A DNA stretch of 64,000 nt from Candidatus Vogelbacteria bacterium RIFOXYD1_FULL_51_18 (GTDB lineage Bacteria > Patescibacteriota > Minisyncoccia > Phycocordibacterales > UBA9988). The stretch covers positions 1,035-65,034 of the forward strand of contig MHTL01000012.1 in assembly GCA_001823095.1 (NCBI GenBank). Direction: 5' to 3'. The notes under the pieces were generated by a model. That model ran no database searches, was not told the origin of the DNA, and worked only from the letters and a program-made list of their open reading frames with translations. The stretch's first letter is position 1. Each line of letters opens with the position of its first letter. The position numbers and the translations under genes are program-made. Below, piece by piece: positions 33,065 through 63,950 of the stretch.

Positions 33065-33094
33065 AGTACCATTGTACTCCTCTCCTGCTATAAT

Positions 33095-33117
33095 TGACTG
33101 AAGTCAGACTTCAGTCA
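33095..33117. repeat. 23-bp palindrome copy 3 (5' end of RAYT gene)
   Basis: Sequence is TGACTGAAGTCAGACTTCAGTCA. Confidence 0.75.
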
Positions 33118-33277
33118 ATTTCAATGGACACCATCTACCACATCTACAATAGAGGTGTTGAGAAGAGGACAATCTTTCTTGATGACCGAGATAGAATCAG
33201 ATTTATTAATTCCTTAGCTATCTTTAACTCGAGCGATCTCGACCCAAACGTAAGCCGCACAATGCGGAATACTCTAA

Positions 33278-33300
33278 TGACTGGAGTCAGACTTCAGTCA
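33278..33300. repeat. 23-bp palindrome copy 4 (inside RAYT ORF)
   Basis: TGACTGGAGTCAGACTTCAGTCA, encoding MTGVRLQS. Confidence 0.75.
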
Positions 33301-33554
33301 GATGACCAGCTTGTGGAGATTATGGCGTTTTGTCTGATGCCGAATCACTTTCACCTCATGATGCGGGCACGAACAGAACGGGGTATCTCAAAATTTATGC
33401 AAAAACTGGGAACCGGGTATGCTAATTATTTCAATCTCCGCCGCCAGCGTGTAGGGTCCTTATTCCAAAATAAATATAAATCCGTCCCTATCATGGATGA
33501 CGCTCATTTTTTGTGGCTCCCCCACTACATACACTGCAATCCGGCTAAGAAGAA

Positions 33555-33577
33555 TGACTGGAGTCCGACTTCAGTCA
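33555..33577. repeat. 23-bp palindrome copy 5 (inside RAYT ORF)
   Basis: TGACTGGAGTCCGACTTCAGTCA, encoding DWSPTSVK. Confidence 0.75.
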
Positions 33578-33768
33578 AAGGGTACCGATGGTCAAGTTAT
33601 GGAGAATATGCAGAGGATGCCGGGAATAAGAGATATCCGGAAATTATAGATACCACCTTCCTCTCCGAAATTTTTGAGACGCCAGAAAATTTTAGGAAAC
33701 AAACTCAAGAATGGCTAAAATCCTATTCGGAATCGGAAGCAGACGGCACCAACGCGCTCATCATAGAT

Positions 33769-33791
33769 TGACTGGAGTCCGACTTCAGTCA
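33769..33791. repeat. 23-bp palindrome copy 6 (RAYT stop region)
   Basis: Sequence is TGACTGGAGTCCGACTTCAGTCA. Confidence 0.75.
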
Positions 33792-44315: not shown

Positions 44316-44382
44316 ATTTGCGCTGTGGACGCATAATCCACTTGTGCTATACTTATCTCATTAGTAGATAACTAATGCTCTT

Positions 44383-44517: not shown

Positions 44518-44523
44518 TTCTCA

Positions 44524-44557
44524 AAAACCCCGTCCGCCGCGGCGGACGGGGTTTTTT
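44524..44557 (+). terminator. Rho-independent terminator
   Basis: AAAAACCCCGTCCGCCGCGGCGGACGGGGTTTTTT. Confidence 0.55.
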
Positions 44558-44580
44558 ATTGTGCTATTATACGCAAGTAT

Positions 44581-46752: not shown

Positions 46753-46793
46753 AAGATAAAAGAGGAGCAAGATTGAAAATTAGAAGCGCCGTC

Positions 46794-47015
46794 TTACTTC
46801 AACAAGGTAATAAAATCTTCGGCAGAAAGTTGAGCGTCACGTAAAATTTTCCTTAACAGGCCAGTTGCAATTATCTTGTGCATCGGCACAGTGACCGGCT
46901 TACGCTTAATACAACTAAGGCGCACATGACTGCCACGCTGACGAACCATGGTATACCCCAATTTTGCCAGACAATTAACACATTCCTTACCAGAGACGAT
47001 CGGCAGCTTTGGCAT
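46794..47015 (-). CDS. hicA: HicA-family mRNA interferase toxin
   Basis: 73 aa with the YcfA/HicA pattern (...GYTMVRQRGSHVRL...). It lies directly downstream of hicB. Confidence 0.6.
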   Translation of the reverse strand: MPKLPIVSGKECVNCLAKLGYTMVRQRGSHVRLSCIKRKPVTVPMHKIIATGLLRKILRDAQLSAEDFITLLK

Positions 47016-47017
47016 AA

Positions 47018-47266
47018 CTAAACGCTAATGGTGTGGAGGCTCAACTCTTGAGGGTGATATCGATGCAGGACGGCTCGATTACTCTTCTCTTCCAGGCAGA
47101 GGGCAATTACCTCGCGAATATTCTTAAGCGCCTCATCGAGTGTTTTGCCGTGAGTATAACAGGCATCAAAAAGAGGGCATTCCACAACATAAAAACCATC
47201 CTCATCACGCTCAATGATGACAGGAATAGTTGGCCGCCCAGATGATCGAAGTACTGTTTTTTTCAT
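47018..47266 (-). CDS. hicB: HicB-family antitoxin (UPF0150)
   Basis: 82 aa with a HicB N-terminal RNase-H-like fold (IPVIIERDEDGFYVVECPLFDACYTHGKTLDEALKNIREVI). Confidence 0.6.
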   Translation of the reverse strand: MKKTVLRSSGRPTIPVIIERDEDGFYVVECPLFDACYTHGKTLDEALKNIREVIALCLEEKSNRAVLHRYHPQELSLHTISV

Positions 47267-47306
47267 AAAAAAAATTTAGCACAAAAACACTCTGAAAACA
47301 AGCGCT

Positions 47307-47338
47307 TCTCCCGAACCCAGACGATTCATTTTGAGTAA
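47307..47338 (+). repeat. 32-bp direct repeat, right copy (abuts tRNA-Ile 3' end)
   Basis: Identical to 46721-46752. The two copies flank the 554-bp hicBA cassette. Confidence 0.8.
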
Positions 47339-47410
47339 TGGGCGTGCTAGGACTCGAACCTAGAACCAGCCGTGTATAAGACGGCTGCTCTACCATTGAG
47401 CTACACGCCC
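47339..47410 (-). tRNA. tRNA-Ile (anticodon TAT, reads AUA)
   Basis: Reverse complement reads GGGCGTGTAGCTCAATGGTAGAGCAGCCGTCTTATACACGGCTGGTTCTAGGTTCGAGTCCTAGCACGCCCA, with a 5-bp anticodon stem GCCGT/ACGGC and loop CTTATAC. Confidence 0.65.
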
Positions 47411-47418
47411 CTCCTCAA

Positions 47419-49362
<1,944 letters not shown>

Positions 49363-49396
49363 AGAGTATAGCGAAATAGGGAGAAAATGAAAGTTG

Positions 49397-49590
49397 TGGT
49401 GTTTGTTTGAAAAAGTCAGAACCCATTTTACGGAGAACCCTGAAAACTAATGCGGACTCGGCAGGGCGAAACATTTGTCTGGGGATATGGATTCGCCCTG
49501 CCTCGGCTTCCGTCCCGCCCGCAGGAGGGGTCTGGGGAGGAATGCGGGCGGGTTTCGGACTGGGGGTTTTCGGAAATTCGGCGGCTATCA
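49397..49590 (+). repeat. 194-bp perfect inverted repeat, left copy (att-arm-like)
   Basis: Identical in inverse orientation to 51637-51830. It contains GC-rich internal hairpins and begins with TGGTG. Confidence 0.85.
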
Positions 49591-49591
49591 A

Positions 49592-49921
49592 TTATTTTAA
49601 CCAAGATTTGACAATTTCCAAAACTTGGACAATTTGTGTTGCGGCAAGCGCAACGCCGACAACGGTTAGCCAAAAAATTCGCTTTTGTAATTTCTCGTTT
49701 TTACCGTCAAGATTTACGATAGTTTTTTCAAGACTCTGGACAGCGGGTTTCAATCTACGAGACATTTCCACATTTGATTGAATTGAAACCTTGTCGCCAT
49801 AATCGTATAAATGAGCGTTCGCCAATATTTCGTCTGGAAGTTTGGTAAAATCCGAATTTGGCGTAAGCTCGGTGTTATATTCCTTCTTTAGTCGTTCTTT
49901 GATTTGATCCTTTGTTTCCAT
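49592..49921 (-). CDS. Hypothetical small protein with C-terminal TM helix
   Basis: 109 aa with a coiled N-terminal part and a C-terminal hydrophobic helix. AT-rich. Confidence 0.35.
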   Translation of the reverse strand: METKDQIKERLKKEYNTELTPNSDFTKLPDEILANAHLYDYGDKVSIQSNVEMSRRLKPAVQSLEKTIVNLDGKNEKLQKRIFWLTVVGVALAATQIVQVLEIVKSWLK

Positions 49922-49956
49922 TATTTACCTGAGGGTGTTGGTTTTATTAAGAAAAA

Positions 49957-51336
49957 CTATTTAATGTCTTTGAGAAAAATTGAAGTCTTAAACACACCAC
50001 TATCTTTTGTTGTTGCGAATACAACATATCCACCAACAGATTCATCTTCAATCGTAAACAAAGATTCTATAGATGTTGGTAAATTACTCTCGAACTTTGT
50101 CCAGGTATGTGCGTTATCTATACTAACCAAGAGTAAATTTTGACCATACTCTTTACTACCTATAACAAATACCACATCTTCAAGTGCAGTTCTTTCCTTA
50201 ATATTAAATTCTTCTTTTTCTTCGTTGTCATAACAATCATAGGTTTTAATGTCGTTGTCATTATGTGAGTAGACAAAAATGTGGGTTGGAGAAACTCCCA
50301 AATCTTCTAAAGAGTTTTCTAAAATCCAATGACCTCCTCTATTTAGGCAGGTTTTGACAAGTAACTTGCTACTTAAACTAATATTCGCATATATATGTGG
50401 AATGCCTTTTTGTGAGTATGCAACTTCCGCGCCAGAATTAAGTGGATGAGGTCCAAATTTTTCTAAAATAGACTCGAGAAGATCATCTTTTTCGCAACCC
50501 ATAAAATCCTCCCAGCAAGAATAGATTGTTCTATCAGTATGAAGCCACGTCGGCCAAGTATTTTGTGTCAAGAGAGAAACAACAGATTCAGAATTGATAA
50601 CGCGAGCTTTCTCCCCGTTGGATAATGTTCTTTCTTGCAAAAAATCTATTTTCTTGGCTCTCACTATGTCGTATGTTATATCGTCATCTTCGATAGCTTT
50701 CCCCAAAAGCCTATTCGTCTCTTCTCGATTATTTTTATTAATTTCTTTTTGATCTTTATAAAGACTCTCGAAAAATGATTTGATATATGCTCGCGTTTCT
50801 TGCTGTGGCTCAGCAAAAAATCCGATGCCAGTTGATATAGAATAGATTATTGGATCTTTTGTAATGCCATAATCTGCTAAGTGAATTTTTTCATAACGAT
50901 TTTCCCTTGAATATGGTGTTAGGGCAATGTCCGCCATTCCTGTCCCCACGAGTATCCAATTATTCCCCCCATCTAAACTTTCAAACACGTCGCCTACACC
51001 CAATGCAAATATGGCTTTTGCATATGGAGCGTGGACTATTTTTCTAATCTCTGGTAATGGATTTGGTAAACCATTATTTATTGCAACCCAGCTTACCCCT
51101 TTGTCTATACTTTTAAAAATTCCCGTATCCGTTCCGGCATAAAGAATGGATTGATTGTTTACATCAGCAATAACAGTATTCACAGAAAGAGTGGTTAATC
51201 CAGTATTGGATTGTTCCCAAACTACGGTTTTATTAGTAGAAGTTTTTTGTGAAAATATAACAGCCAAAATTATCACCAACAAGACGGCTCCGATGATAAG
51301 ATGCTTTTTTGTAAATTTTATATTATTTTCAATCAT
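49957..51336 (-). CDS. Membrane-anchored protein with BNR/Asp-box repeats
   Basis: 459 aa with an N-terminal TM helix and SxDxGxxW boxes (SIDKGVSW, SLDGGNNW). The C-terminal half is unknown. Confidence 0.45.
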   Translation of the reverse strand: MIENNIKFTKKHLIIGAVLLVIILAVIFSQKTSTNKTVVWEQSNTGLTTLSVNTVIADVNNQSILYAGTDTGIFKSIDKGVSWVAINNGLPNPLPEIRKIVHAPYAKAIFALGVGDVFESLDGGNNWILVGTGMADIALTPYSRENRYEKIHLADYGITKDPIIYSISTGIGFFAEPQQETRAYIKSFFESLYKDQKEINKNNREETNRLLGKAIEDDDITYDIVRAKKIDFLQERTLSNGEKARVINSESVVSLLTQNTWPTWLHTDRTIYSCWEDFMGCEKDDLLESILEKFGPHPLNSGAEVAYSQKGIPHIYANISLSSKLLVKTCLNRGGHWILENSLEDLGVSPTHIFVYSHNDNDIKTYDCYDNEEKEEFNIKERTALEDVVFVIGSKEYGQNLLLVSIDNAHTWTKFESNLPTSIESLFTIEDESVGGYVVFATTKDSGVFKTSIFLKDIK

Positions 51337-51349
51337 ATTTTTATAAAAG

Positions 51350-51571
51350 TTATTTTATAAAATATCCAACCTCTTTTTTATAAAGTGCAGCAAACTTCCT
51401 TATCTCAACAATATCTAGCCTTTGTTCGCCCGCCTCGGACTTTGAAATATAAGATTGAGGACGCTTCAATTTCTTTGCGGCTTCAACTTGCGTAAAACCT
51501 GCCTCTAAGCGGGCATTCTTCAATTTTAACGCAAAATTCTGATATTCCTTTGTTCTTATTGAACTACCCAT
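51350..51571 (-). CDS. XRE-family helix-turn-helix transcriptional regulator
   Basis: 73 aa, LKNARLEAGFTQVEAAKKLKRPQSYISKSEAGEQRLDIVEI. Confidence 0.7.
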   Translation of the reverse strand: MGSSIRTKEYQNFALKLKNARLEAGFTQVEAAKKLKRPQSYISKSEAGEQRLDIVEIRKFAALYKKEVGYFIK

Positions 51572-51636
51572 ATATTAACAGTTTATATTCACAAAGGCAA
51601 TATTCAAAGTTAGAATAATGTGCTATGCTTAATTTA

Positions 51637-51830
51637 TGATAGCCGCCGAATTTCCGAAAACCCCCAGTCCGAAACCCGCCCGCATTCCTCCCCAGACCCC
51701 TCCTGCGGGCGGGACGGAAGCCGAGGCAGGGCGAATCCATATCCCCAGACAAATGTTTCGCCCTGCCGAGTCCGCATTAGTTTTCAGGGTTCTCCGTAAA
51801 ATGGGTTCTGACTTTTTCAAACAAACACCA
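51637..51830 (-). repeat. 194-bp perfect inverted repeat, right copy
   Basis: Reverse complement equals 49397-49590. Confidence 0.85.
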
Positions 51831-51983
51831 GAATTAAAGTCAGGTCATTTTTAGAAATTTTTTCTTTGGCGTTCGCCAAAGAAAGCCAATGGTTTTGGGC
51901 AATTCCGAACGCTCCGCGTTTTTTTAAGGTGAGGTTCAAAAATTCAAAAGCCGAAGATTTTTGGAGGGAGATTTTTTTGGAGG
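51826..51983 (-). repeat. Inverted duplicate of the recombinase gene 3' end (attP-arm-like)
   Basis: Reverse complement matches 63409-63557 except for a ~10-bp indel. It joins the 194-bp repeat at the same CTGGTG where the recombinase gene meets tmRNA. Confidence 0.7.
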
Positions 51984-52098
51984 GGAGGTCGAAGACGAAT
52001 ACATAACACTTGCCCCACCCTTCCCGTGCGCGTGTTAAAAACTTTTGCCGACTTGGAGATCGGCAAACTCCCTAAAAACAAGCAAGCAACTGATATAT

Positions 52099-55000
52099 CT
52101 AAACTATACTTTCCCTCAATATGTATCCGACAACAGAACCTTTTGCTATTAAGAAATCTAGTATCACTAACACATCTTGTTTTAACTTTTTGGTCTCTCT
52201 TATTTTTGTACGATTTTTATAAATATACTTTCTGATAAGATTTTCTATATAGAAAAGCGTGTTTACCTCAAGTTTGGCAGTAAATAAGTTTTTATTTTTT
52301 ACTAACATACCTGATATCCACTGTACGCCATCCTCCATATAGGTACTCCCGATATCATTTAGTAGTTTTGAAATTGCATAGAGGGTTGAGGCACATTGTC
52401 CAATATTCTCCGAAATTTCTTTAAAAAATCTTTTATCACTATCTTTGAATGTATGCCATTCGGTCGCAGATTCTTTCCACGGATTTTGAGCAAAAAGATA
52501 ACTTTTAATAATTTTATCAACGTACCAATATCCATCTCCCTTTTTACAAAGCTCAATTATTTTCTCGTTAAATATTCTCCAAACTTCCCAAAATATCTCA
52601 TAAGAGTTTAAATAATCCTCAGCAGATATAAATTCCTCAAATAAATCAGCGATTGCCTCTGAACTATTAAATTTATCAAGAAATGGTTGAAGGTATTCTT
52701 GAATTTCTTCTTTTGAAGAACTCAAGACGAGATAGGCTAGTTTTTCTAAAAAACCATGCTTTGTCGCATAATCAACTCTGTCCTCTCTGTCATTTGAAAT
52801 TAATTTTTCAGCAAAAGCAAAGATGGTTTTTTTGACTACTATTTTATGCTCCTCATTTTTAGTTTTTAGAGGAATCAATTGGAAAGCTGTTTTTAATGTG
52901 TATAAATCTATCTGCTCAATATCTCCAACGTCACCAATTAACAATTGATTGTTTTGGATTTTCTCTAAATACACTTTATTTTCTTCCAAGAATCTTTTCA
53001 TTGCATCACTATCTTGTATATCGTACTGATTCTTTATATATTTTTCTTGGCGTATTTTTTCTCTTAACTCATCAAATTTTGGTTTCAAATATAAGTAGCC
53101 AAACAATAATGACTGAGCATCATCAAAATTGGTACTCCATAGCTTGTGAATAGCCGTGATTGAAAATACGTTAAAACTTGTACCAGCCATATCAATGGGA
53201 TAATAGTTAAACAAATTAAACAACAAAATTTCTTTTATCTTTCCTTTTTCTTTCGGAAATTTCTCAAATAGAACTGGCAATACCGAAATTGCCGATTGCG
53301 CACCATCAGTTACCTGATATTGATAGTTAGGGCCGGAAGACGAAGACACGGCTTCTAAAACAATATCGGCGCAAAATTCGCCTTCCTCTTTTGAAAGCTT
53401 ATCAAGAAAATCTCTAATCATGACAGAGCAGACTTCTGAGGGGATAGAATGATTTAAAAGGTAAAAACTTTCTTCTTCCGAGTGCTGAAGTTTTAATGAT
53501 TCAGGTTTTTTAACAGTTTTTAATTTTGCAATGATCTCTTCAACTTCCTTAAGCGGAAGCTTGGGATCGTCCTCATATTTATTATACTGCTTGTATTTTT
53601 CGTCATTTCTGAGCCTGAAATTTGCCCATAATTTTAATTGCAGGTATTTAGATGATTCGGAATTCTTTTCTAAAGATTTCTCGCTGTATTCTTTTAATTT
53701 CGGATCAATTTGAGGATTAAAATTAATCAAATATCCGTCATCAGTTTTTTCTGAGACAAGATTCATTTTCCTTCTATCCATTCTTGCCAAGTAAAGTCTC
53801 CACGTTTTGTCTGATTCGGTTTCTACCGATGGATCGGGTAACTTTTTGTAATAATCGTCCAATATTTCCCACAGAATCTTTTGTCTGTTCTTTGATTCCT
53901 CCTCATCAACTTCTTCACTTCTAAATAATTGGTAATTTAGAAATACATTCTCTAAAGACCATTTTCTATGCTTGTCATCACAGGTTTTTAACCTCTCCTC
54001 TTCGTGAATTTCATTTTTTGAATTGATACCAAAACTTGCTCTTAAAGACAGAAGTGAACTTTTTTGACCTTGGTCTAAAACTAACCTGCTAGTGTCATAA
54101 AGAAAAAAGTCTTTTGTTCTAAAAAGAATTTTAGCCACATTAAAAGTCTTTTCGGGATAAGCCGACACAACACTTGCAACCACGCCTGAGATAGAAGCTG
54201 ATTTTGAATTTCTAATTAGATACAAAAGCCAGCTTTCCAAAGTCTTTGAATCAGTAACCTTTCCAATTTCAAGGAAATACCTTTCTAAGGCCATGTGCAT
54301 TGATTCTAGGACGTGAGGAGCAACCTGCGTACCTCTGAACGCGCACCAAAGCCGACAGCTTATGTATTGTTTTATTGGCTTATCTTTTTCAATAAAGACC
54401 TCAACTTCTTCAACTTCATATTTAGCAAATTCAGATTTGGCAAAGTATTCTACTGCTTTATTTGTAAATTTTAATATGAAATCTATTGTTTCTTGGAGCG
54501 AAGATTGGAGCAGCCAATAAATTGGAGTCTGATATGAGCTAGCCGGAAAATAATCTAAATGATCATCTTCCATGTCAAAATGTTCCGCAATGTCTATCCC
54601 AGAACGACCGGAGAAGTGATCTTCTTTTGGCGTGAACGACCAAAATAAATCTGCTAATTCCAAAACATATTTAGGAAAAGTCTTGGCAATAGTGACCCCT
54701 TCAAATTTTGTCAAAATAATTTCAGATAAATCAACATAAGGGTCTCTGTGTCTTTTCCACTTATTCTTTACAATTTCTTTAAAAATTCCCTCTAGTTGGC
54801 CTTTAATCTCTAGGGAGCTATAAAGAATTGTCTGCAAGAGCTTATCTTTAGTACCATCGTCAGAAATATGGACGTCTTCTTTAATAGTCCATTGGTAGTA
54901 TTTCAGTGCCATTAAGCCAGAATATTTTGTCGTTTCTCCTTCCTTAAATTTACTAGTCCAATCGTGGATTATCGGCAAGATAAAATGGATATTTCTAATA

Positions 55001-56907
55001 CCAACTTGATCAAAGTTTTCAAAAACAAATTTAATAAGACTTTCCCATCCTTGTCCTTTCGGCCTCGTCAAAATATATTTGAGGGAAAAGATATTTAAAT
55101 TTTTAACTCCTAGCTGTTTAAAAAAGTCATCATCAACTTCCTTGCAGGCAATTCTTAAAAGGAAAAACATTTTGTGCAACAAGCTTTCTTCGTATTTATA
55201 GTTAACGGTTAAAGATTGCGCGACTTTGGATGAATTGTCATACTTGACTACTTTTTCTGGGATACTTAGTAATTCGTTTTTAAAGAATTCAAAGAATACA
55301 GAGGAGAAATCGGAAAGTAAAACAGAAACCAATATTTCATCTTTCCAAAAAGATTCTACCCCATTATTCTTTACAGCCTCTTCAATAAAGGTTTTTATCT
55401 CTTCGTTCTGTAGCAACAACTTTTCCGATACCCATTTTCTAAAAGCACGGCGCAAAGGCAAAGAACTGCCCAGATTTTGGAAAAAAGTTTTAGTGTCGGT
55501 CTTTTTCCCAAATTCAATTTGAATATTTTTTTCCAACGCCCACTCCTCATAGATATCATGAGTAATGAAATAGCCATGCGGCGATTCATATCCTAAAATC
55601 CCGTCCTTCTTTAACTCATTATCCAGAATTTCTGATTCACAATCTGGATTAATAAAGAACTGTCCATCGGTTGCCCTCTGCAATGCCATCTTTAAAAAGC
55701 ATTGTTCTCTTGCAGGTTTAGATTTAATAATTATTTTATTCCATAATTTGTCTTTAAAATCCGTATAGTTTATTTGCTCACCCTCCTTGTAAATCTTCAA
55801 ATACTCGTTTAAGTAAAATGGATTTCTAACAAGGTCTAGTAATTTTTCGTCACTCGGAAGAGAAAACTTATATGTCTCAGAAAGTTTACTTAGCTCCTTT
55901 GCTTCCAAATTTTGGATATTGATATTTAAAGGGGCAATTCCATAAATCTCAAAAAACTGATAGTTTAAATCTTCTAGATAATTATCTCTTGTAGTAAAAA
56001 TAACTTTCCAATTTTCCTTAACCACAATAGATAAAAACTCCTTAAAGGGGTCGGTGTTTTTCAAATCCAACAATTTTTCTGCGGAATCAATTGCAATAAT
56101 TTTATCGCCATCATTTTTATGCCCATCTAAAAAATCCTGAAAACTATACCCTGTAAAGAATTCACTTAGATTTCTCAGCTCAAATTCGGTTGCTTTGAAA
56201 ATATAGAAAGGTATCTTGCCTTTCGTTTCTTCATAGAAGTCTTTAATGACCGCTGTCTTTCCAACTCCACCAACACCACTCAAGATCAATACCTTATCTA
56301 GGCTAGTTTTTATTTTCTCCAAATTACCACTCCTGTCTATCTTTATATTTTGACCATTAAAGGCGATGGTCGTTTGTATCTCGCTTAATATATTCTCCGA
56401 ATGATCCTGTTGATTTTTTATTAGGTCAAATATACTTTTGTCTAAACTAAAAAAATGTTTAGCTATTATTTCGTTATCAACCGATACAAAAGTAGATTCA
56501 AAAAAACTTGCAGTTCTCCATTCTAACTTAATGCCAAGCGTATTCGCCTTACCCTCTACGTCTTTCTTCCCTTGAGGTTCTTTGCCTTTATTTTGTACCC
56601 ACTCCTCGTTAGTATATAAAATTAGCTTTGTAATATTTGTGTAATCTCTCTTTGCCTTTTCAAGGACACCAATCAGCTCAGTCGTATGGTTTGACAATGA
56701 TGTACTGTAAAACTTAGCTTGCCAACCTATCACTTCTTCTTTTTCTTGAACAGTATCTGTCTCTATGGCAGATTGATTTTTATAACGAAAAATTCCAACA
56801 ATTTTATTGAACTCTCTGCAAAATAATGAGTAACAAAACCACTCAAAATTGTTTTGAGGATTTTCGCTAAATTTCGCCTTAAAGATGTTCCAACTTGGCT
56901 TAATCAT
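52099..56907 (-). CDS. Giant STAND/NB-ARC-like P-loop NTPase (1602 aa) with N-terminal ~200-aa domain and long C-terminal helical repeat region; candidate Avs-like antiphage protein
   Basis: Walker A VLILSGVGGVGKTAV (aa ~216-229) and a Walker B-like KIIAIDSAE motif, then >1200 aa of alpha-helical repeat-like sequence. The N-terminus has a D...QxK patch (AIETD...VIGWQAKF). It sits 74 nt downstream of Type III res on the same strand, and a 14-codon uORF overlaps the start (ATGA). Confidence 0.55.
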   Translation of the reverse strand: MIKPSWNIFKAKFSENPQNNFEWFCYSLFCREFNKIVGIFRYKNQSAIETDTVQEKEEVIGWQAKFYSTSLSNHTTELIGVLEKAKRDYTNITKLILYTNEEWVQNKGKEPQGKKDVEGKANTLGIKLEWRTASFFESTFVSVDNEIIAKHFFSLDKSIFDLIKNQQDHSENILSEIQTTIAFNGQNIKIDRSGNLEKIKTSLDKVLILSGVGGVGKTAVIKDFYEETKGKIPFYIFKATEFELRNLSEFFTGYSFQDFLDGHKNDGDKIIAIDSAEKLLDLKNTDPFKEFLSIVVKENWKVIFTTRDNYLEDLNYQFFEIYGIAPLNINIQNLEAKELSKLSETYKFSLPSDEKLLDLVRNPFYLNEYLKIYKEGEQINYTDFKDKLWNKIIIKSKPAREQCFLKMALQRATDGQFFINPDCESEILDNELKKDGILGYESPHGYFITHDIYEEWALEKNIQIEFGKKTDTKTFFQNLGSSLPLRRAFRKWVSEKLLLQNEEIKTFIEEAVKNNGVESFWKDEILVSVLLSDFSSVFFEFFKNELLSIPEKVVKYDNSSKVAQSLTVNYKYEESLLHKMFFLLRIACKEVDDDFFKQLGVKNLNIFSLKYILTRPKGQGWESLIKFVFENFDQVGIRNIHFILPIIHDWTSKFKEGETTKYSGLMALKYYQWTIKEDVHISDDGTKDKLLQTILYSSLEIKGQLEGIFKEIVKNKWKRHRDPYVDLSEIILTKFEGVTIAKTFPKYVLELADLFWSFTPKEDHFSGRSGIDIAEHFDMEDDHLDYFPASSYQTPIYWLLQSSLQETIDFILKFTNKAVEYFAKSEFAKYEVEEVEVFIEKDKPIKQYISCRLWCAFRGTQVAPHVLESMHMALERYFLEIGKVTDSKTLESWLLYLIRNSKSASISGVVASVVSAYPEKTFNVAKILFRTKDFFLYDTSRLVLDQGQKSSLLSLRASFGINSKNEIHEEERLKTCDDKHRKWSLENVFLNYQLFRSEEVDEEESKNRQKILWEILDDYYKKLPDPSVETESDKTWRLYLARMDRRKMNLVSEKTDDGYLINFNPQIDPKLKEYSEKSLEKNSESSKYLQLKLWANFRLRNDEKYKQYNKYEDDPKLPLKEVEEIIAKLKTVKKPESLKLQHSEEESFYLLNHSIPSEVCSVMIRDFLDKLSKEEGEFCADIVLEAVSSSSGPNYQYQVTDGAQSAISVLPVLFEKFPKEKGKIKEILLFNLFNYYPIDMAGTSFNVFSITAIHKLWSTNFDDAQSLLFGYLYLKPKFDELREKIRQEKYIKNQYDIQDSDAMKRFLEENKVYLEKIQNNQLLIGDVGDIEQIDLYTLKTAFQLIPLKTKNEEHKIVVKKTIFAFAEKLISNDREDRVDYATKHGFLEKLAYLVLSSSKEEIQEYLQPFLDKFNSSEAIADLFEEFISAEDYLNSYEIFWEVWRIFNEKIIELCKKGDGYWYVDKIIKSYLFAQNPWKESATEWHTFKDSDKRFFKEISENIGQCASTLYAISKLLNDIGSTYMEDGVQWISGMLVKNKNLFTAKLEVNTLFYIENLIRKYIYKNRTKIRETKKLKQDVLVILDFLIAKGSVVGYILRESIV

Positions 56908-56981
56908 TGTAATTTTCTTAGGTTTTGGGAGAGTTCCATTTTTTCCATTCTGAACCTCTTTAATACGAATTATTCATAAAT

Positions 56982-59675
56982 TTATTTCTTATCAAATACC
57001 CTCACGACCTCATCAAAGTTTTTGAGTTTATCTTTTTCCCATTCTTCTTGTTTTATATAAAGTGCTTTATAGACAACCCGATTTTGGCGATCGTTCACAT
57101 CTACACACCACTTTTGCAGTCTTTCAAATTTCAACTTATCATTTTCTTCTTCTCGTCCTTTTGTTTCAATAATATATACAGTTTTTTCGTCTTTTTTAAC
57201 AAAGAAGTCTGGATAGTAGGTGGCGATAAACCCTTCCGAATTTTTATACTCAATTCTAAGCGCGCTCGCTTCCTTGTTTTGAAAGTTTTTTGCGAAAGAA
57301 ATTACATCATCACAATTTTCAAGAAAATCCGAAAATACCAATTCAAAATCACTATCCCCAACAATCTTATTGAAAACTGATTTTTTAGGTATTAAATATG
57401 ATTTGTCATTAACAACAAAAGGTCTTGCTTCGCTGATTTTTATATAGTTCTTTATTTCCGTATCGCCCTTGTCCTCTACAGTGAGATCATTGATAGCTTT
57501 TTTGAAAGAATCTTTAATGAGCCTTATATATTCAACTTCTGATAAGTTTCTCAAGGTATTGAGGTCTGACAAATTCACAGGACTATCAAACATATTATTT
57601 TGCAAAAACTCTCTTACTTTGCCGAATAAAATATCGTAGCAACCAAACAATCGTAGCTCTCGCATTATTGCTTGCGCAAAAAACCCGACAACGCTTTGAT
57701 AATCTGGCTCTATGTCTCCAGAAAGTATTGTTGTATGGTGAGTTTTTTCACCAACAACATCTTTAAAAACAATTTCTCGTTTTTCTTCCTCCGAAAATAT
57801 TTTAACCTTTACTTTTTTATTTCCAAACTTAGACACATCCAACTCGGCAAGATTTTTGTATTCTCGCTGAATTCTAGGGGACATTACCGGAATCTCAATA
57901 TCAAGTTTCTCAATATCTTTATTCGGATTATCTTTATCAACCTCAATAACCATCGGAGCTATTGGCTTAGCTCCTATTCCCATGGCTTTCTTCTCAAGAA
58001 TAACGCCCTCGCCTTTGATTGACTCAACAAAGTCCATAAAAGCGGGAGTTCCAACAACACTCACATACTCCTCAACATCATCTCTGCCAAAAAACATTCT
58101 GCGGAGTCCTCGCCCGAGAGTTTGTTCAGGAAGAATTTTTGAATCGGCGGCGTATGGTCGTAGCCCAACGATTGTCGTTACATTTTTTACATCCCAACCC
58201 TCTTTGAGCATCATTACAGAAATAATCACCTTGAAAGGACTTTCCCAACTATCAATTTCGTTTGCCTGTTTTCTAAGCAAATCCAATTCTTCTCTGCTTT
58301 TGCCAGATACACTTTCAGAAATTTCACCACTTTTATTTGTGTGAATGGTCAAAACCGCGCCTTTCAGTTCCTTAAAACTTGTTTCAATATAACCTGCCAC
58401 CTCATCACAGTTCTTTGTATCGTCTGTCATAATAAAAAGAATAGATTTCTTGCCCATCGGTTTTAACGCCTCGTATGTTTTTTGCCATTCTTCAATACCA
58501 AGATTTATATAATCTCTGTATTTTTCGCTAAATAGCGTGCTTTGATTTTCTTTTAACTTTCCTCGGCTCGCCGCGTCTGGCACAACCGGATTTTTTACCA
58601 CTCTTTGATGGATTGCTTCAACAAGCGGATAATCCGAAATTGTTTGCACAAAAATAGAGCCGTCATTCTTTTTTGGCGTAGCTGTCAAATCAATTTGCAA
58701 GGATAGTTTCGTTCCTTTTTGTTTTAGGCGATTATCTATGTCCGTAATAGATTTAACCCAAGCTGATTTGTCATCGTGCAAGTGATGTGCTTCGTCATTG
58801 ATTACAATAAGTTCGTCAATATCCCTCACAATCATTCCCAGATCAACAGTAGAATCGCTTGTTTTCGTAACTGGCTTATCACCCAAGAAATATGCAGAAG
58901 TATCCTCGTCTTCTATGCTTGAATCTTTTATATCACCCTCGAAAACTCTGTGGATATTAGTCAAAAATATATTTCCAGTATCAGAAACATTACGCAAATC
59001 ATCTTGCAAGTGCAAAGTCATTTGAAAATCATCTTGCCAGTTTTGCCCTTGGTATCCATTCTCCGGCAGAACAGGGTCGCTAAAAAATATCTTCAATCCC
59101 TCAAAATCATGTTTTATCCTTTCAAAAACGATGACATTCGGGGTTATTAAAAGAAAATTCTTTGCCAAATTAGAATCTTCCTCATATTTTTTATGAAAAT
59201 ACGCCCATGCGACAATCAAACTCATTACCTTTGTTTTACCTGCGCCTGTCGCCATTTTTATTACAAAACGAAGCCACTCCTCGGTAAACATTTGTGGGCT
59301 TAATACGCCGGTAGAATTGTAGCGAATGAGGTCGTATTTATCTTTTACTTTTGCTACTTCATAAAGCCAAATGACTGTTTCTAGTGCCTCTCTCTGTGCG
59401 AAATAGTATTTGAAATGAGAAGATACTCCTTGCTGGTCATACAAAATATGTTCTTCCTTAAACCACCAGTTCAAAAGTGATTTTGAAGTATCGCTCGCTC
59501 CATCATAATTTTTATCTCGCCATTCTTTTACTTTTTCTCGTAAACCAGCAACAAGAGGAGGTAAGAGTTTTTGAATAGCTCCCTTTTCTCTCAAATCTTC
59601 GTCAGCAGGAAACCACCGAATGTTCGGGTCAAGTATTGCGTATGGGTCTTTGGGAAAATCTTTATGGAGTGCCAT
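56982..59675 (-). CDS. res: Type III restriction enzyme Res subunit (DEAD/DEAH helicase + endonuclease)
   Basis: Walker A MATGAGKTKV and DEAH box (VINDEAHHL). 897 aa. The upstream mod stop lies 1 nt from the ATG. Confidence 0.8.
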   Translation of the reverse strand: MALHKDFPKDPYAILDPNIRWFPADEDLREKGAIQKLLPPLVAGLREKVKEWRDKNYDGASDTSKSLLNWWFKEEHILYDQQGVSSHFKYYFAQREALETVIWLYEVAKVKDKYDLIRYNSTGVLSPQMFTEEWLRFVIKMATGAGKTKVMSLIVAWAYFHKKYEEDSNLAKNFLLITPNVIVFERIKHDFEGLKIFFSDPVLPENGYQGQNWQDDFQMTLHLQDDLRNVSDTGNIFLTNIHRVFEGDIKDSSIEDEDTSAYFLGDKPVTKTSDSTVDLGMIVRDIDELIVINDEAHHLHDDKSAWVKSITDIDNRLKQKGTKLSLQIDLTATPKKNDGSIFVQTISDYPLVEAIHQRVVKNPVVPDAASRGKLKENQSTLFSEKYRDYINLGIEEWQKTYEALKPMGKKSILFIMTDDTKNCDEVAGYIETSFKELKGAVLTIHTNKSGEISESVSGKSREELDLLRKQANEIDSWESPFKVIISVMMLKEGWDVKNVTTIVGLRPYAADSKILPEQTLGRGLRRMFFGRDDVEEYVSVVGTPAFMDFVESIKGEGVILEKKAMGIGAKPIAPMVIEVDKDNPNKDIEKLDIEIPVMSPRIQREYKNLAELDVSKFGNKKVKVKIFSEEEKREIVFKDVVGEKTHHTTILSGDIEPDYQSVVGFFAQAIMRELRLFGCYDILFGKVREFLQNNMFDSPVNLSDLNTLRNLSEVEYIRLIKDSFKKAINDLTVEDKGDTEIKNYIKISEARPFVVNDKSYLIPKKSVFNKIVGDSDFELVFSDFLENCDDVISFAKNFQNKEASALRIEYKNSEGFIATYYPDFFVKKDEKTVYIIETKGREEENDKLKFERLQKWCVDVNDRQNRVVYKALYIKQEEWEKDKLKNFDEVVRVFDKK

Positions 59676-59676
59676 G

Positions 59677-61773
59677 TTATATATTTACTTCAACTACTTT
59701 CGTCGTATCATTTCCGAAAATATCCACAACCTTTACGGCGATTTTGTGCTTACCTTTTGTCGCCACCTTTGGAGAAGTAACGAGGTCAAGATTTCTGTTC
59801 TTTTTTGTGCGGAAACTCTGCCATTCGTTGTCAAAAATATAGTCGCCAGTCCAAATTTCTTTTTCTTTGCCGTCTTCCATTATTTTTATGATTTCCTTTC
59901 TGCTCGCAAAATCAAAATCTACCGCCCAATAGTCAATCCAGTCGCTCCATTTTTTAGTCAAAATCTCCTTGGATATTTCTTCCGTCTTTTTATCTTTTGA
60001 AATTTTTACCACTTGGCCATCTTCCACCACAACTTTAGATCCGCCCGGGCGCAACGCCTCGGCTATCTCACCAGAATCATCTTGATTATAAAAAACAGAA
60101 AAATCAGTAAGCTCTATTGATATTTCTTTATCACTTCCTCGTCCTTTGATAATCGGCTTCGCCTCAATAAACGCAACATCATAAAACTTCACTTGTCCTT
60201 TTTCTACCGCTTTTTTGTCAAAAACTTCTCGTGGAATTATTCTGAAAGCGATATCAATCCCTTGATCTTTGTATTGTGAAAAATCCAGCCCCATTTCGTA
60301 ATCAAAGCCAAGTACATCAATTTTAGTTATTCCTTTTTCTTTGCATTCCTTCACAATATCTTGCACGAGTTTTGAGGAAACGGGTGTATTGATAGGTCCT
60401 ACCGCTACAAGGCGATCTCTTTTCTTGCCGATAACATTCACAAAAGATTCTATCGGCTCTGCTTTGTATGCGGAAAGTATAAGTTTTACAAATTCCTTTT
60501 CTTTCCTTTCGGCTTGTTTTGATTTTTCCTCTGCTCGCAAATCATCATTTGTCGCTAGGAAATTTTCTCTTTCATATCTCCCAACATTCAGAATCTCAAA
60601 AGCTCGAAAATTTTTACTTTCCTTTTTCAGTTCTCTTTGTATTCCAATTAGTCGTTTACGAGATGTGTGTATGCCGAATTTACCCAAATCAGAACCAATC
60701 CACTTTCTACCAAGTTTTTCAGCAACAGCGAGAGTCGTACCAGCACCGCAAAAGAAATCTGCTACAAGATCACCCTCATTGGTGGATGCACTTATGATTC
60801 TCTCCAGTAGTGCTTCGGGCTTCTGTGTCGCGTAGTCGGTGTTTTGAGTTTTATCGGCAGGTTGTAAACAAGCTATCTTCCATACATCATCAACTCTTCT
60901 TACATCTCTCATTTGATACTGCACATTACCACTCTCATCTCTAGCATTTATTGCTTTTCCTTCAAAATATTTTCTTTTTAATTGCTTAACGGGTTGGTCT
61001 CTCTTTTCTTCTTGTGGATTGAAAGTATAATTTGAATCTTTATTTTTTACATAAAACAATATTCTGTCGTGTGCGGAGGAATATTTTCTAGTACCACTCG
61101 CCATTTTATTATAGTAATACCAAGATATATCACCTAGGAAATTATCTTTTCCAAAAATCTCATCTAAAATACATCTTATATAAGAATTTGTTTTCCAGTC
61201 GCAGTGCACATAAATACTTCCGTCTTCAGCGAGTAACGAATACATAAGTTTTAGTCGCTCATAAAGCATCGCATTAAAACTATCCACCCCTTTACCCCAT
61301 GTATCACGAAAAGCGATCTCCTCTATGACGGAAGGTTTCTTTTTAAACTCATCTTCTCCTATTTTTATATCAATAGAAAAATCTGCGCCTACATCAAACG
61401 GCGGGTCAATATAAATCAATTTCAAACCGCCTTGCGCTTCTATTTCTTTGCGAAGTGGTCCATTTTTGAGAGAGGAGAGAATCAGTTTATTGTCTCCCCA
61501 AATCAATTTATTCGTCCATCCGGTTATTTGTCGTCCTGTTGTATCAAAAAGAGAATTTTGATTGCCGAATTTTGCATCACTTCTTGGCTCGTCTATTTGC
61601 TCAATAACTTGAAAAGGCAAGACAACATTCGTTACCTCATTTGTCTTTCCATTCCAAAGAAGCTCAACCTCTCTGTCATCATCAAAGAGCAAGAAACGAT
61701 ATTTTTCCGGAAGCGGTTTTCCCGCTTCCAAGTATTTCACAACATCTCTTTTTTCATTATCAGTTAATTTCAT
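59677..61773 (-). CDS. mod: Type III Mod DNA methyltransferase (beta-class N6A/N4C MTase)
   Basis: Motif IV IYIDPPFDVG precedes motif I DFFCGAGTTLAVA. Confidence 0.8.
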   Translation of the reverse strand: MKLTDNEKRDVVKYLEAGKPLPEKYRFLLFDDDREVELLWNGKTNEVTNVVLPFQVIEQIDEPRSDAKFGNQNSLFDTTGRQITGWTNKLIWGDNKLILSSLKNGPLRKEIEAQGGLKLIYIDPPFDVGADFSIDIKIGEDEFKKKPSVIEEIAFRDTWGKGVDSFNAMLYERLKLMYSLLAEDGSIYVHCDWKTNSYIRCILDEIFGKDNFLGDISWYYYNKMASGTRKYSSAHDRILFYVKNKDSNYTFNPQEEKRDQPVKQLKRKYFEGKAINARDESGNVQYQMRDVRRVDDVWKIACLQPADKTQNTDYATQKPEALLERIISASTNEGDLVADFFCGAGTTLAVAEKLGRKWIGSDLGKFGIHTSRKRLIGIQRELKKESKNFRAFEILNVGRYERENFLATNDDLRAEEKSKQAERKEKEFVKLILSAYKAEPIESFVNVIGKKRDRLVAVGPINTPVSSKLVQDIVKECKEKGITKIDVLGFDYEMGLDFSQYKDQGIDIAFRIIPREVFDKKAVEKGQVKFYDVAFIEAKPIIKGRGSDKEISIELTDFSVFYNQDDSGEIAEALRPGGSKVVVEDGQVVKISKDKKTEEISKEILTKKWSDWIDYWAVDFDFASRKEIIKIMEDGKEKEIWTGDYIFDNEWQSFRTKKNRNLDLVTSPKVATKGKHKIAVKVVDIFGNDTTKVVEVNI

Positions 61774-61777
61774 AAAT

Positions 61778-61984
61778 TTATTTGATTAAGTCTTCAATCG
61801 GAACGGCTAGTGCTTTTGCGAGACGCTCAATGTTTTTCAGAGCCATATTCCGCACACCCCGTTCAATACCGCTTATATAAGTCGAGTGAACACCTAAAAC
61901 TTTGGCGAGATCGGCTTGCGACATCTGTTTTTTGAGTCTAATTTCTTTAACCTTTTTTCCAAACTTGGCTGATATATCTGTCAT
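61778..61984 (-). CDS. Controller (C) protein, XRE-family HTH, upstream of mod
   Basis: 68 aa, MTDISAKFGKKVKEIRLKKQMSQADLAKVLGVHSTYISGIERGVRNMALKNIERLAKALAVPIEDLIK. The track ORF 61778..62392 is an N-terminal over-extension. Confidence 0.6.
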   Translation of the reverse strand: MTDISAKFGKKVKEIRLKKQMSQADLAKVLGVHSTYISGIERGVRNMALKNIERLAKALAVPIEDLIK

Positions 61985-62008
61985 AAATTCATATTTTACC
62001 CCTTGCGT

Positions 62009-62058
62009 GCATTCTATCAGATATTGTAATATAGTTCTATGTAGAATTATCATTCTAC
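62009..62058. promoter_or_regulatory. Candidate C-box operators / divergent promoter region
   Basis: Inverted repeats TTCTA-TG-TAGAA (62035-62046) and GTAGAAT-TATC-ATTCTAC (62041-62058), in an AT-rich spacer between the C gene and the recombinase gene. Confidence 0.35.
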
Positions 62059-62062
62059 CCAT

Positions 62063-63628
62063 ATGTCTAAATACTTTCTTTACGCAAGAAAATCCACCGA
62101 TGTCGAGGACAAGCAAGTCCTCTCTATTGAAGCCCAACTCGCCGAACTGCGGGCACTCGCCAAGCACGAGAACCTTTCCATATCGGACGAGTTTATAGAA
62201 AAGCGATCGGCAAAAATGCCCGGTCGCCCGATCTTCAACGATATGCTCCGCCGCATACAGACGGGCGAAGCACAAGGCATTATTTGTTGGAAGATTGACC
62301 GCTTGGCTCGCAATCCCGTGGACGGCGGACAAATTCAATGGCTTCTGCAACAAGGAGTTATCGCACATATTCAAACCCACGATAGAAGCCATTATCCAAA
62401 CGACAATGTTTTGATGATGTCCGTCGAGTTAGGCATGGCTAACGAATATATCCGCCAACTAAGTGCGAACACCGCAAGAGGATTACGGCAGAAAGCACGG
62501 CAGGGAGACTTTCCCGGCCTTGCTCCGCTTGGCTACATCAACAATTCCAACATCAAGAAAATCGCCGTTCATCGTAAAAATGCGAAGCTCATTAAAAAGA
62601 TGTTTGAACTTTACGCAACGGGAAGTGTCCGCCTTGAAAATCTTTCCGTTGTTTTGGAACAGGCGGGTATCCAATCCAAAAATAAAAATCGTGTTCATAT
62701 TTCACGAATATCAAATATTCTCACCAATCCGATTTATTACGGACACTTCCGCCACGCAGGGGAAATATACGAGGGCAAGCACGAGCCGATAATCACGAAA
62801 GACCTCTTTGATAGGGCTAACGCCGTCTTGCGAGGCCGAGGCCGCACCCCCGCTAAAAAGACCGACCCGAGGCCGTTTTGTGGCCTCCTGTCGTGTGGGA
62901 GTTGCGGTATGGGAATAACGGGAGAGATAAAGATAAAGAGGCAGAAGAACGGCAACACCCACCGCTATATTTATTACCATTGCACGAAGAAGTCCAAGAC
63001 GAAGAAATGTCCCGAGCCGTGTATTCGGCAAGAGGAATTAGACCGCCAGTTGTCGGTCATGCTTTCCGAATACGCTATGCCGAAAGAATGGGTAGCCCCA
63101 CTTTCCGTCATGCTCGACAAGGAGGAACACGACACAAAAAATTCCGCGTCGGAGGCTGTTCAAGAAATGCGAGGGCAAGTCAGCGACTTTTCCCGCAACC
63201 TCGCCAGACTTACCGATATATATGTATCGCAAGACATAGAGCGAGATGACTACCTTGAGAGGCGTCGTTCGCTCATGTCCGACAAGAAGTCCGTCGAGGA
63301 GCAAATAGCCCGTCTTGAACATACCCCCTCCGCGTGGATCGAACCGACCCGAGACTGGATTAAAGACGCTTCCATACTGGAAGAAACAGCAAAAACAGAC
63401 GACCTCCCCTCCAAAAAAATCTCCCTCCAAAAAATCTTCGGCTCGAACCTCACCTTAAAAAAACGCGGAGCGTTCGGAATTGCCCAAAACCATTGGCTTT
63501 CTTTGGCGAACGCCAAAGAAAAAATTTCTAAAAATGACCTGACTTTAATTCTGGTGGAGATGGCGGGAATCGAACCCGCGTGCAATGAGAGGCGCATGCA
63601 TGCTTCTACGGAGCCTAGACTGCTTTAA
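62063..63628 (+). CDS. Large serine recombinase (resolvase catalytic domain + recombinase domain + Zn ribbon)
   Basis: YARKSTDVEDKQVLSIEAQ (catalytic Ser), ...RLARN..., a CGLLSCGSCG...C Zn-ribbon, and a coiled-coil. The last ~77 nt overlap the tmRNA 3' end. Confidence 0.85.
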   Translation: MSKYFLYARKSTDVEDKQVLSIEAQLAELRALAKHENLSISDEFIEKRSAKMPGRPIFNDMLRRIQTGEAQGIICWKIDRLARNPVDGGQIQWLLQQGVIAHIQTHDRSHYPNDNVLMMSVELGMANEYIRQLSANTARGLRQKARQGDFPGLAPLGYINNSNIKKIAVHRKNAKLIKKMFELYATGSVRLENLSVVLEQAGIQSKNKNRVHISRISNILTNPIYYGHFRHAGEIYEGKHEPIITKDLFDRANAVLRGRGRTPAKKTDPRPFCGLLSCGSCGMGITGEIKIKRQKNGNTHRYIYYHCTKKSKTKKCPEPCIRQEELDRQLSVMLSEYAMPKEWVAPLSVMLDKEEHDTKNSASEAVQEMRGQVSDFSRNLARLTDIYVSQDIERDDYLERRRSLMSDKKSVEEQIARLEHTPSAWIEPTRDWIKDASILEETAKTDDLPSKKISLQKIFGSNLTLKKRGAFGIAQNHWLSLANAKEKISKNDLTLILVEMAGIEPACNERRMHASTEPRLL

Positions 63629-63950
63629 CTACTTGCCGGTAGTATTCGGTGCCGCGCGTCAAGAGCAGACGAAATCGCACAGCATCCTAGATTGTTTGTT
63701 TAGGTATCGTAGTCAATCATTCTACGGTACCGATCTTTGAGATATGACACCCTGCGTTTTAAGCAAAGATACTGTAAAACGCGGGCGGCATTACGCTAAC
63801 GCGAATGCGGGCGTGAAGTATGGCGATGCCACACTGCCGCCGTTTTCAGATGAGTTGGCACTTATCTGTTCTGCAATTATAGTAACGGCCTATTGCAGGA
63901 GGCCGGCGCGCACATACAAGGCGTACCCACTGTCTATGCCGATCATCCCC
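63552..63950 (-). ncRNA. ssrA: tmRNA (ssrA)
   Basis: Reverse complement starts GGGGATGATCGGCATAGACAGTGGG and ends GCACGCGGGTTCGATTCCCGCCATCTCCACCA. The 3' end matches 24 of 28 nt of E. coli ssrA (GCGGGTTCAACTCCCGCCAGCTCCACCA). The acceptor has a G3:U70 wobble. A candidate tag ORF ends AFALA-TAA (stop at plus 63791-63793). Confidence 0.75.

Follow-up and report, generated by a model that had tools for sequence, protein, structure and literature searches.

A defence island at the tmRNA gene of a Vogelbacteria genome, its putative large serine integrase and a second, inverted attachment site

How did about 14 kb of AT-rich DNA carrying defence genes come to lie between ftsH and the transfer-messenger RNA gene (tmRNA, ssrA) of a bacterium in which the adjoining DNA is far richer in guanine and cytosine (GC)? 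The locus is part of a stretch of 64,000 nucleotides (nt) from Candidatus Vogelbacteria bacterium RIFOXYD1_FULL_51_18 (GenBank assembly GCA_001823095.1, contig MHTL01000012.1, positions 1,035 to 65,034 of the forward strand), which we call the window and in whose numbering all positions are given. An earlier reading made from the letters alone (the sequence-only reading) had seen here a genomic island integrated into the 3′ end of ssrA by a large serine recombinase. What it observed is confirmed by our analysis, and its interpretation is supported as essentially right, the junctions fitting the logic of serine integrases and relatives repeating that logic. Positions 49394–63556 are very probably an integrative island of a large, mainly patescibacterial family, inserted at the tmRNA end by its own predicted recombinase.

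GC content is 37.2% over the whole island, compared with 53.2% for window positions 1–49393 and 58.5% for ftsH. From 51–61% at 45–49.4 kb it drops to 30–40% between 49.6 and 62 kb, and both AT-rich stretches (49591–51636, a first cargo bay termed S1, and 52086–61777, the cargo of a second bay, S2) stand at 35.0%. The sharp break in composition described earlier holds on the left, where GC falls beside ftsH; on the right the change is graded, because the recombinase gene is itself intermediate (48.6% GC) and not AT-rich. This foreign composition (35–37% against 53–58% GC), together with contents that differ among close relatives, marks the region as a genomic island. The tmRNA gene at its right end is complete according to ARAGORN and matches Rfam RF00023 over its full length (87.5 bits). 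The recombinase open reading frame (ORF) does run into the tmRNA 3′ end: reading on the other strand, it overlaps the tmRNA gene by 77 nt, and its last 24 codons including the stop (23 amino acids (aa), EMAGIEPACNERRMHASTEPRLL) are antisense tmRNA.

Three junctions in the window have only TGGTG in common. At the left end, host DNA meets a terminal element, X, at ...GAAAGTTGTGGTG / TTTGTTTGAAAAAGTCAGAACCC, giving attL; within the island, on the reverse strand, a copy of the recombinase-gene tail meets a copy of X at ...GACTTTAATTCTGGTG / TTTGTTTGAAAAAGTCAGAACCC, giving an intact attP; and at the right end the tail itself, T, meets the tmRNA at ...GACTTTAATTCTGGTG / GAGATGGCGGGAATCGAACCC, giving attR. 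The arms assort as host–core–P′ for attL, P (the recombinase tail)–core–tmRNA for attR and P–core–P′ for the internal site. On the tmRNA strand the core reads CACCA (CCA preceded by the discriminator and the final acceptor base), and the tmRNA gene is therefore left whole. The junction motif singled out by the sequence-only reading, CTGGTG at 63551–63556 (CCACCAG on the tmRNA strand), indeed recurs as TGGTG at 49397–49401, where the repeat element said to follow it is present with a length of 197 nt (49394–49590) and not 194. Of the duplicated tmRNA 3′ sequence that had been expected, only this 5-nt TGGTG recurs at both ends, with no tmRNA fragment at the far end, as is normal for a serine recombinase. 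The P′-arm motif GTCAGAACCCATTTTA (49415–49430) is confined within the window to X and its inverted copy, X′. Before insertion, attB is predicted to have read ...AAAGTTGTGGTGGAGATGGCGGG..., with halves ...GAAAATGAAAGTTGTGGTG / GAGATGGCGGG....

The recombinase has a Resolvase domain (PF00239, E = 5.9e-22, residues 5–149) with a YARKST motif that contains the nucleophile serine (residues 7–12), followed by Recombinase (PF07508, residues 172–259) and Zn_ribbon_recom (PF13408, residues 271–330) domains, and its relatives in the PDB include SPbeta SprA/YokA (E = 1.5e-13) and the A118 integrase (E = 3.6e-10). Its domains, short att cores and half-site geometry place it among the large serine integrases, with predicted activity. 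Homologues number in the thousands and, where named, belong to Parcubacteria, Falkowbacteria, Paceibacterota or Patescibacteria. We collected 83 related loci with recombinase identities of 38–96%, almost all of them in Patescibacteria assemblies (loci and contigs are cited by L numbers where they need to be told apart). The recombinase tail adjoins a tRNA or tmRNA 3′ end in 60 of the 66 full-length copies, with tRNA-Thr the target in 33, Gly and Arg in 3 each, tmRNA and Val in 2 each and others once each. A viral origin is not supported, IMG/VR yielding one distant relative only (38% identity). Exact-sequence look-ups gave no match for the window's recombinase, RecG-like protein or GTG-start FtsH; the ATG-start FtsH (P0121) was matched.

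Several family members were noted in their own right. A 93%-identical recombinase in L005 lies beside what ARAGORN calls a 'tRNA-Stop' (9594–9669), with an anticodon read as complementary to a stop codon. A single Paceibacterota genome (JBAZVG010000001.1, 813 kb) carries three members, L012, L014 and L032, two at tRNA-Thr and one at tRNA-Phe. An 84%-identical recombinase beside tRNA-Gly, with a cargo of type I restriction-modification (R-M), PIN and M78/DUF4411 genes, occurs in L003/L007 (ERZ4201063 NODE_3, 635 kb; CAYHCC010000012.1), where the assembly bears the label Acidimicrobium and contains genes of acyl-CoA metabolism that are atypical of Patescibacteria; this reflects either a recent cross-phylum transfer or a binning or labelling issue.

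The same three-site logic is found, at other tRNA genes, in more than 12 complete relatives (L011, L014, L017, L038, L044, L054, L055, L059, L071, L083 and others). Their three-way shared cores measure 3–14 nt (once 28), with a minimum of GAG or GTG corresponding to tRNA positions 72–74, where the discriminator stands between the final acceptor base and the first C of CCA. Read outward from the core, the consensus of the tRNA-side arm is CCg..g.c.GGaATcGAACC and that of the element's P′ arm is T.cCT.TTaAAc.agGCTcGAACctAtTTTAgCAAA. The T-arm motif TCGAACC thus appears in both, at +18–24 in P′ arms (n = 25) and at +14–20 in tRNA arms (n = 53), i.e. 4 nt further out in the element. In the Van Duyne/Rutherford model, developed in work on A118/LI, P-type half-sites reportedly have their outer recognition motif further from the centre than B-type half-sites, and a 4-nt outward shift is the geometry expected of attP versus attB half-sites in serine integrases.

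Other contents occupy the same site in closely related populations. At the same tmRNA, L002/L084 has a 96%-identical recombinase and a cargo of DUF2779 and a giant helicase. L091 and L092 have an FtsH identical to that of the window (100%) and share its flank up to 49398/49399, where a different P′ arm, GATATTCTCAACTTTGGACGAACCCATTTTG, begins; a sigma-70 gene follows the P′ arm in both, with ABC-efflux genes in L091, and L092 stops ~330 nt beyond the junction. L085, whose flank matches that of the window to 49398/49399, holds between the same ftsH and tmRNA flanks a 3.3-kb R-M island devoid of a recombinase; we observed in it (683–2281) a LexA-like repressor/S24 peptidase fused to a DNA methyltransferase, with the gene of a restriction enzyme alongside. 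In L086 (53–1633), from a sister population, an unrelated large serine recombinase of 526 aa sits at the same tmRNA end and reads into the tmRNA (C-terminus ...SRLVEMAGIEPACNERRMHASTEPRLL), so that a second serine-integrase lineage uses the same trick. Yet another insert lies between these flanks in L087, and every alternative insert is lower in GC than its host. Genus-level relatives (FtsH 85% identical) have the order smpB, tmRNA, 2.8 kb, ftsH, and their 2.8-kb interval, with a glycosyltransferase and a radical SAM gene at flank-like GC, is neither empty nor obviously an island.

The claim that the cargo is defence-related is borne out by PADLOC, which identifies Avs4 and the type III R-M subunits Mod and Res (Table 1); with a control-protein-like helix-turn-helix (HTH) gene they form the cluster expected of a defence island. 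This HTH gene presumably starts at M137 of ORF 61778..62392, and an HTH gene of 65–94 aa takes the equivalent place in L001, L002 and L004. All three S1 genes are also present in L089. The cargo of relatives comprises R-M systems of types I and II, HerA-like proteins and genes for biosynthesis, along with many unknowns. In most of them S1 is the large bay (1.3–8.9 kb, with S2 at 1.5–3.5 kb); in the window and its closest relatives the large cargo is in S2.

Table 1. Features of the island and its target in window coordinates.
Feature	Position	Strand	Basis or remark
X: P′ arm of attP and GC-rich hairpins, left end of island	49394..49590	+	197-nt inverted repeat I1, 99%; 55.8% GC
attL core TGGTG	49397..49401	+	host-side arm (upstream of ftsH) stops at about 49396-49399
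S1 cargo bay	49591..51636	-	three genes, GC 35%
109-aa protein (S1)	49592..49921	-	family search: no match
459-aa BNR/sortilin-like protein (S1)	49957..51336	-	domain search
HTH gene (S1)	51350..51571	-	domain search
X′, inverted copy of X	51637..51833	-	99% identical to X
T′, inverted remnant of recombinase 3′ end	51826..51991	-	inverted repeats I2 and I3; core CACCA 51826-51830 links X′
Conserved spacer	51992..52085	-	terminator-like hairpin 52067-52044 just past Avs4 (terminator scan)
Avs4, 1602 aa	52099..56907	-	PADLOC PDLC02169, 2280 bits, residues 1-1602 against profile 1-1570
Type III restriction subunit, 897 aa	56982..59675	-	Pfam ResIII; PADLOC REase_III
Type III methyltransferase, 698 aa	59677..61773	-	Pfam N6_N4_Mtase; PADLOC MTase_III, E = 1e-112
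Xre/C-protein-like HTH, divergent from recombinase	61778..61984	-	HTH_3 at residues 148-202 of ORF 61778..62392; PADLOC control protein
Large serine recombinase, 521 aa	62063..63628	+	conserved part ends at 63556
T: P arm of attP, recombinase 3′ end	63400..63556	+	attR core TGGTG 63552-63556
tmRNA gene, intact, CCA encoded; integration target (B′ arm)	63552..63950	-	ARAGORN, Rfam

The inverted copy of the recombinase tail that had been pointed out inside the island is present at 51826–51991 and proved to be a family-wide feature rather than an incidental one. X′ is joined through the core to T′, and the two constitute an intact inverted attP (51637–51991) that splits the island into S1 (X to X′) and S2 (T′ to T), each bracketed by inverted repeats. 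T′ matches the recombinase tail over 112 nt at 100% and then over 34 nt at 100%, with a small indel between, and repeats of the length and identity of X and T are far beyond chance. In general the family follows the order host, X, S1, X′, T′, S2 (recombinase, with or without HTH gene and cargo), T, tRNA. A contig from a separate sample (L089) is 99.93% identical to window positions 38360–53543 and thereby independently reproduces the layout through X, S1, X′ and T′ and into Avs4; a further contig (L090) ends within X. Of the 61 loci that could be assessed, 56 have a T′ upstream of the recombinase, including the 38%-identical L079; remnant tails adjoin a P′ arm in 26 of 32 cases, and the second inverted-repeat pair, X/X′, is found beyond T′ where contigs suffice in length. 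The end of the internal attP lies ~1.3 kb (median) upstream of the recombinase start, and 125–440 nt in the 16 closest cases. In L031 (9446–12721) we observed a full recombinase tail joined to a P′ arm, i.e. an intact attP, with further inverted arms on both sides and no nearby tRNA; the locus is a multi-bay element or else a form that is not integrated.

The two copies of each arm evolve in concert. Over the 100 nt beside the core, T and its own T′ share a median identity of 99% (12 of 28 pairs are identical), compared with a median of 57% between tails of different elements; T′ is closest to its own T in 26 of 28 loci, and X/X′ pairs are mostly 93–100% identical. A T′ foreign to its own T was seen only in L012 and L029 (65–77%). 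Further from the core, T′ has ~9–10 nt extra relative to T in the window, L001, L002, L009, L017 and L022, and none in L003, L007 and L032. T′ is then followed by its private spacer, conserved in L001–L004 and with a terminator-like hairpin after the cargo operon; that of the window (51992–52085) shares 82–94% identity with L001–L003 and 86% with L004 (51903–52075 only), and the cargo differs. The extra bases and the private spacer indicate that T′ has been inherited as such, its core-proximal part being repeatedly homogenised with T. Both bays are found flipped among relatives: a winged-helix gene beside X′, reading outward, in L016 has its homologue beside X in L017 (a flip of S1), and the host flank that meets the full tail in L040 meets T′ in L039 (a flip of S2). 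T′ also adjoins the tRNA in L072 and L022, of which L022 is weak as a clean flipped case, its right flank being GC-rich coding DNA and its contig possibly chimaeric.

In the family the recombinase gene extends across attP. Its frame stays open for at least 13 codons into the P′ arm in 24 of 25 distinct arms (6–7 of 25 for the other two frames), and the arm encodes a conserved 14-aa recombinase tail, xLLNxARTYFSKNx. The synonymous share of differing codons in the P′ arm is 0.30 in the recombinase frame against 0.17 and 0.07 in the others. Integration swaps this native tail for a peptide encoded by antisense tRNA (median 19 aa), which in 40 of 51 cases has a G-I/F-E-P-like motif derived from the T-arm, and the T′–X′ junction keeps a native recombinase 3′ end inside the island.

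Three other roles for parts of the island were considered and set aside. X as a structured RNA gave a folding z-score of −1.17 and no Rfam match. T′ as an expressed C-terminal fragment is contradicted by T′/T length differences of +7, +9 or +10 nt, which do not keep the frame. S2 as a transposon with terminal inverted repeats fails on its end sites, which are inverted and whose G(A/T)G lacks a palindromic dinucleotide, permitting inversion only.

The mechanism we propose begins with a circular element that would have been inserted by attP × attB recombination at the tmRNA end, a step that is well supported, with a 2-bp crossover that probably falls inside GTG. Given an inverted internal site and a polar (non-palindromic) core, only the whole unit from X to T could be excised, through attL × attR, and this would require a directionality factor; S1 or S2 alone could only invert. 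The least secure step is that the internal attP would act as a working site at which bays invert or circles insert either way. That it serves as a site of recombinase binding and recombination, allowing the bays to flip-flop or insertion to occur either way and storing the native gene end, is a tentative reading to which we give slightly less than an even chance. Possibly it is instead purely regulatory, as a roadblock or operator for the recombinase, or a conserved homology arm for cargo exchange. Bolder, and in our view rather unlikely, is the reading of a new organisation of serine-integrase elements: a clade that has specialised in inserting at the discriminator/CCA end of tRNA and tmRNA genes, a second functional inverted attP kept under selection, two bays that flip-flop, and inversion that switches the recombinase between isoforms with native and antisense-tRNA tails. 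If true, isoform switching by inversion could replace or supplement a directionality factor.

A number of observations weigh against integration by the island's own recombinase or against a working internal site. The empty ssrA–ftsH site and the excised form that the sequence-only reading had suggested looking for were not encountered: a strictly empty site was absent from the relatives examined, in which the same flanks hold differing inserts instead, a search of JGI metagenomes with the predicted empty attB (ATGAAAGTTGTGGTGGAGATGGCGGGAATCGAACC) gave no match, and the circular junction, which in sequence is indistinguishable from the internal attP, was not found. The P′ arm of the window is atypical in being 2 nt shorter than in close relatives, with the T-arm-like motif 2 nt nearer the core and only about 2 nt further out than in the tRNA arm, and its native tail is out of frame, reading FV and then a stop; this copy of the element may be impaired, poorly mobile or fixed. 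No candidate directionality factor is conserved among the relatives, such factors being small and diverse enough to be missed; the minimal element consists of the recombinase with or without the HTH gene, and the smallest S2 bays are too small for a directionality factor. Equal use of the internal attP would lead one to expect a ratio of ~1:1, unlike the ~3 flipped loci against 60 with the recombinase beside the tRNA. Inversions and concerted evolution could arise from RecA-type homologous recombination alone, and canonical serine integrases are not known to act on attP paired with attL or attR.

In one population the same flanks enclose five or more different contents, and the ssrA–ftsH interval might be regarded as a 'replacement' flexible island, in which homologous recombination through conserved flanks swaps the contents; the serine recombinase would then be an ancestral passenger with no part in delivering this cargo. 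The window and L002 would be well suited to such exchange, having T′ plus spacer (94%) and HTH plus recombinase (94%) in common as good homology arms around unrelated cargo. Each alternative island, however, has its own P′ arm at an identical crossover position, and the sixty relatives at many tRNA genes in different hosts need site-specific insertion, with which homologous exchange of cargo on a platform so delivered is compatible. We consider the replacement reading improbable.

The internal repeats invite two further explanations. S1, with X as 197-nt terminal inverted repeats, and S2, as a recombinase element, could be separate elements that accreted, T′ being a relic of the recombinase gene of an older, oppositely oriented insertion; each bay does lie within its own inverted repeats, a recombinase-less island occupies the same site in L085, and tandem or nested cases occur in L056, L018 and L031. 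This is highly improbable given that 56 of 61 relatives have an unbroken attP at T′–X′, that T′ is 99% identical to the T of its own element while elements differ by ~43%, that the extra bases of T′ (~9–10 nt) fall at the same place in six loci, which separate accretion events would not bring about, and that with a polar, non-palindromic core S2 alone could invert and not excise. The data are metagenome-assembled and many contigs end 140–230 nt past the internal core, within the X repeat, as might be seen if assembly had mixed integrated and excised forms. That assembly created the inverted attP inside the island and its double inverted repeats in this way is nonetheless barely credible, because the same architecture recurs in more than 50 contigs from varied projects and assemblers, including complete-chromosome records (OY970382.1, L067), because T′ has its own indels and a private conserved spacer absent from T, and because the near-identical L089 comes from another sample. 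Integration at the tmRNA end by the island's own recombinase remains the reading we prefer.

Elsewhere in the window, tRNA-Ile with the uncommon anticodon UAU (47339–47410) lies directly downstream of ftsH and is kept in all relatives examined. Beside it, a 41-nt direct repeat (46712–46752, at the end of the RecG-like gene, and 47298–47338, beside tRNA-Ile) brackets a 586-nt HicB/HicA cassette (HicB at 47018..47266, minus strand), an arrangement suggestive of a small insertion that duplicated its target; relatives with an 85%-identical FtsH have a GreA-like gene in this position instead. Within ftsH, 30 nt (48406–48435) are 83% complementary to the attR junction, and an FtsH peptide is similar to LVEMAGIEP, the T-arm of the tmRNA translated in antisense, which we judged to be a coincidence. 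A second region of lower GC (39–49%, 30000–35600) holds three type IV pilin-like genes, a prepilin peptidase, two HepT toxins, an MNT-type nucleotidyltransferase and an IS200-like Y1 transposase (33094..33771, plus strand).

The family matters in several respects. It provides at least 60 loci of serine integrases that target tRNA or tmRNA, a targeting that the island-mapping literature held to be unknown or doubtful, and represents a main vehicle for defence genes (Avs4 and type I, II and III R-M systems) in the tiny genomes of Patescibacteria. Its natural sets of integrase, attP and attB, with the conserved tRNA end as attB, could aid the engineering of bacteria that are hard to manipulate. 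The combination of an inverted attP, concerted evolution and bay inversions poses a testable question about the control of serine integrases that have no evident directionality factor.

Among known systems, A118/LI, SPbeta SprA, phiC31, Bxb1 and the CcrAB recombinases of SCCmec are alike in combining Resolvase, Recombinase and zinc-ribbon domains with very short identity between attP and attB. Large serine integrases further share the displaced outer motif of the P arm and an integrase gene beside one island end, and SCCmec the variable cargo and the insertion where a conserved gene ends, at its very 3′ terminus; the island differs from them in its discriminator/CCA target and in that no directionality factor was seen. 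We know of no description of an internal inverted second attP as a feature of large serine integrase systems, and the literature we searched contained none, nor anything on serine recombinases at tRNA genes in candidate-phyla bacteria. Tyrosine-integrase islands of the Islander type resemble this one in their location at a t(m)RNA 3′ end, the adjacent integrase gene, the preserved target, the foreign composition and the occurrence of different islands at one site in different strains. In contrast to the displaced tRNA fragment of 15–50 nt at their far end, here no more than 3–8 nt are shared (in the window the 5-nt TGGTG), and in place of a tyrosine-family integrase the sole recombinase of the island is of the serine family. 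Serine integrases are said not to specify tRNA genes in the Islander paper (PMC4383910), and another study found t(m)RNA use in only 14 of 297 serine-integrase islands, termed previously unreported (PMC7192596).

The integrase genes of Mx8 (IntP/IntX) and SSV also extend across attP (PMC4383910, PMC6070905), and there too integration gives the recombinase gene a new 3′ end; those are tyrosine recombinases lacking a spare native 3′ end, whereas here a spare T′–X′ lies inverted inside the island. Prochlorococcus tycheposons, of which 27 of 937 carry large serine recombinases (bioRxiv 10.1101/2020.12.28.424599), are likewise cargo elements at tRNA or tmRNA genes in streamlined genomes, often with defence or niche genes. 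Compared by description only, they differ in having mostly tyrosine recombinases, in many cases replication genes, and no described double inverted-repeat layout. By analogy only, the yeast 2-micron plasmid and other invertible segments also have two segments, long inverted repeats that contain the recombinase site, and both isomers; the 2-micron plasmid differs in its replication function, its recombinase family and its rules, and inversion in the present family is known from sequence comparison. Set against these systems, three features are undescribed in the literature searched: the systematic use of tRNA and tmRNA ends, a recombinase gene that contains attP, and a conserved second attP, inverted and accompanied by two bays that can flip; the island itself is an ordinary one, a defence island at ssrA.

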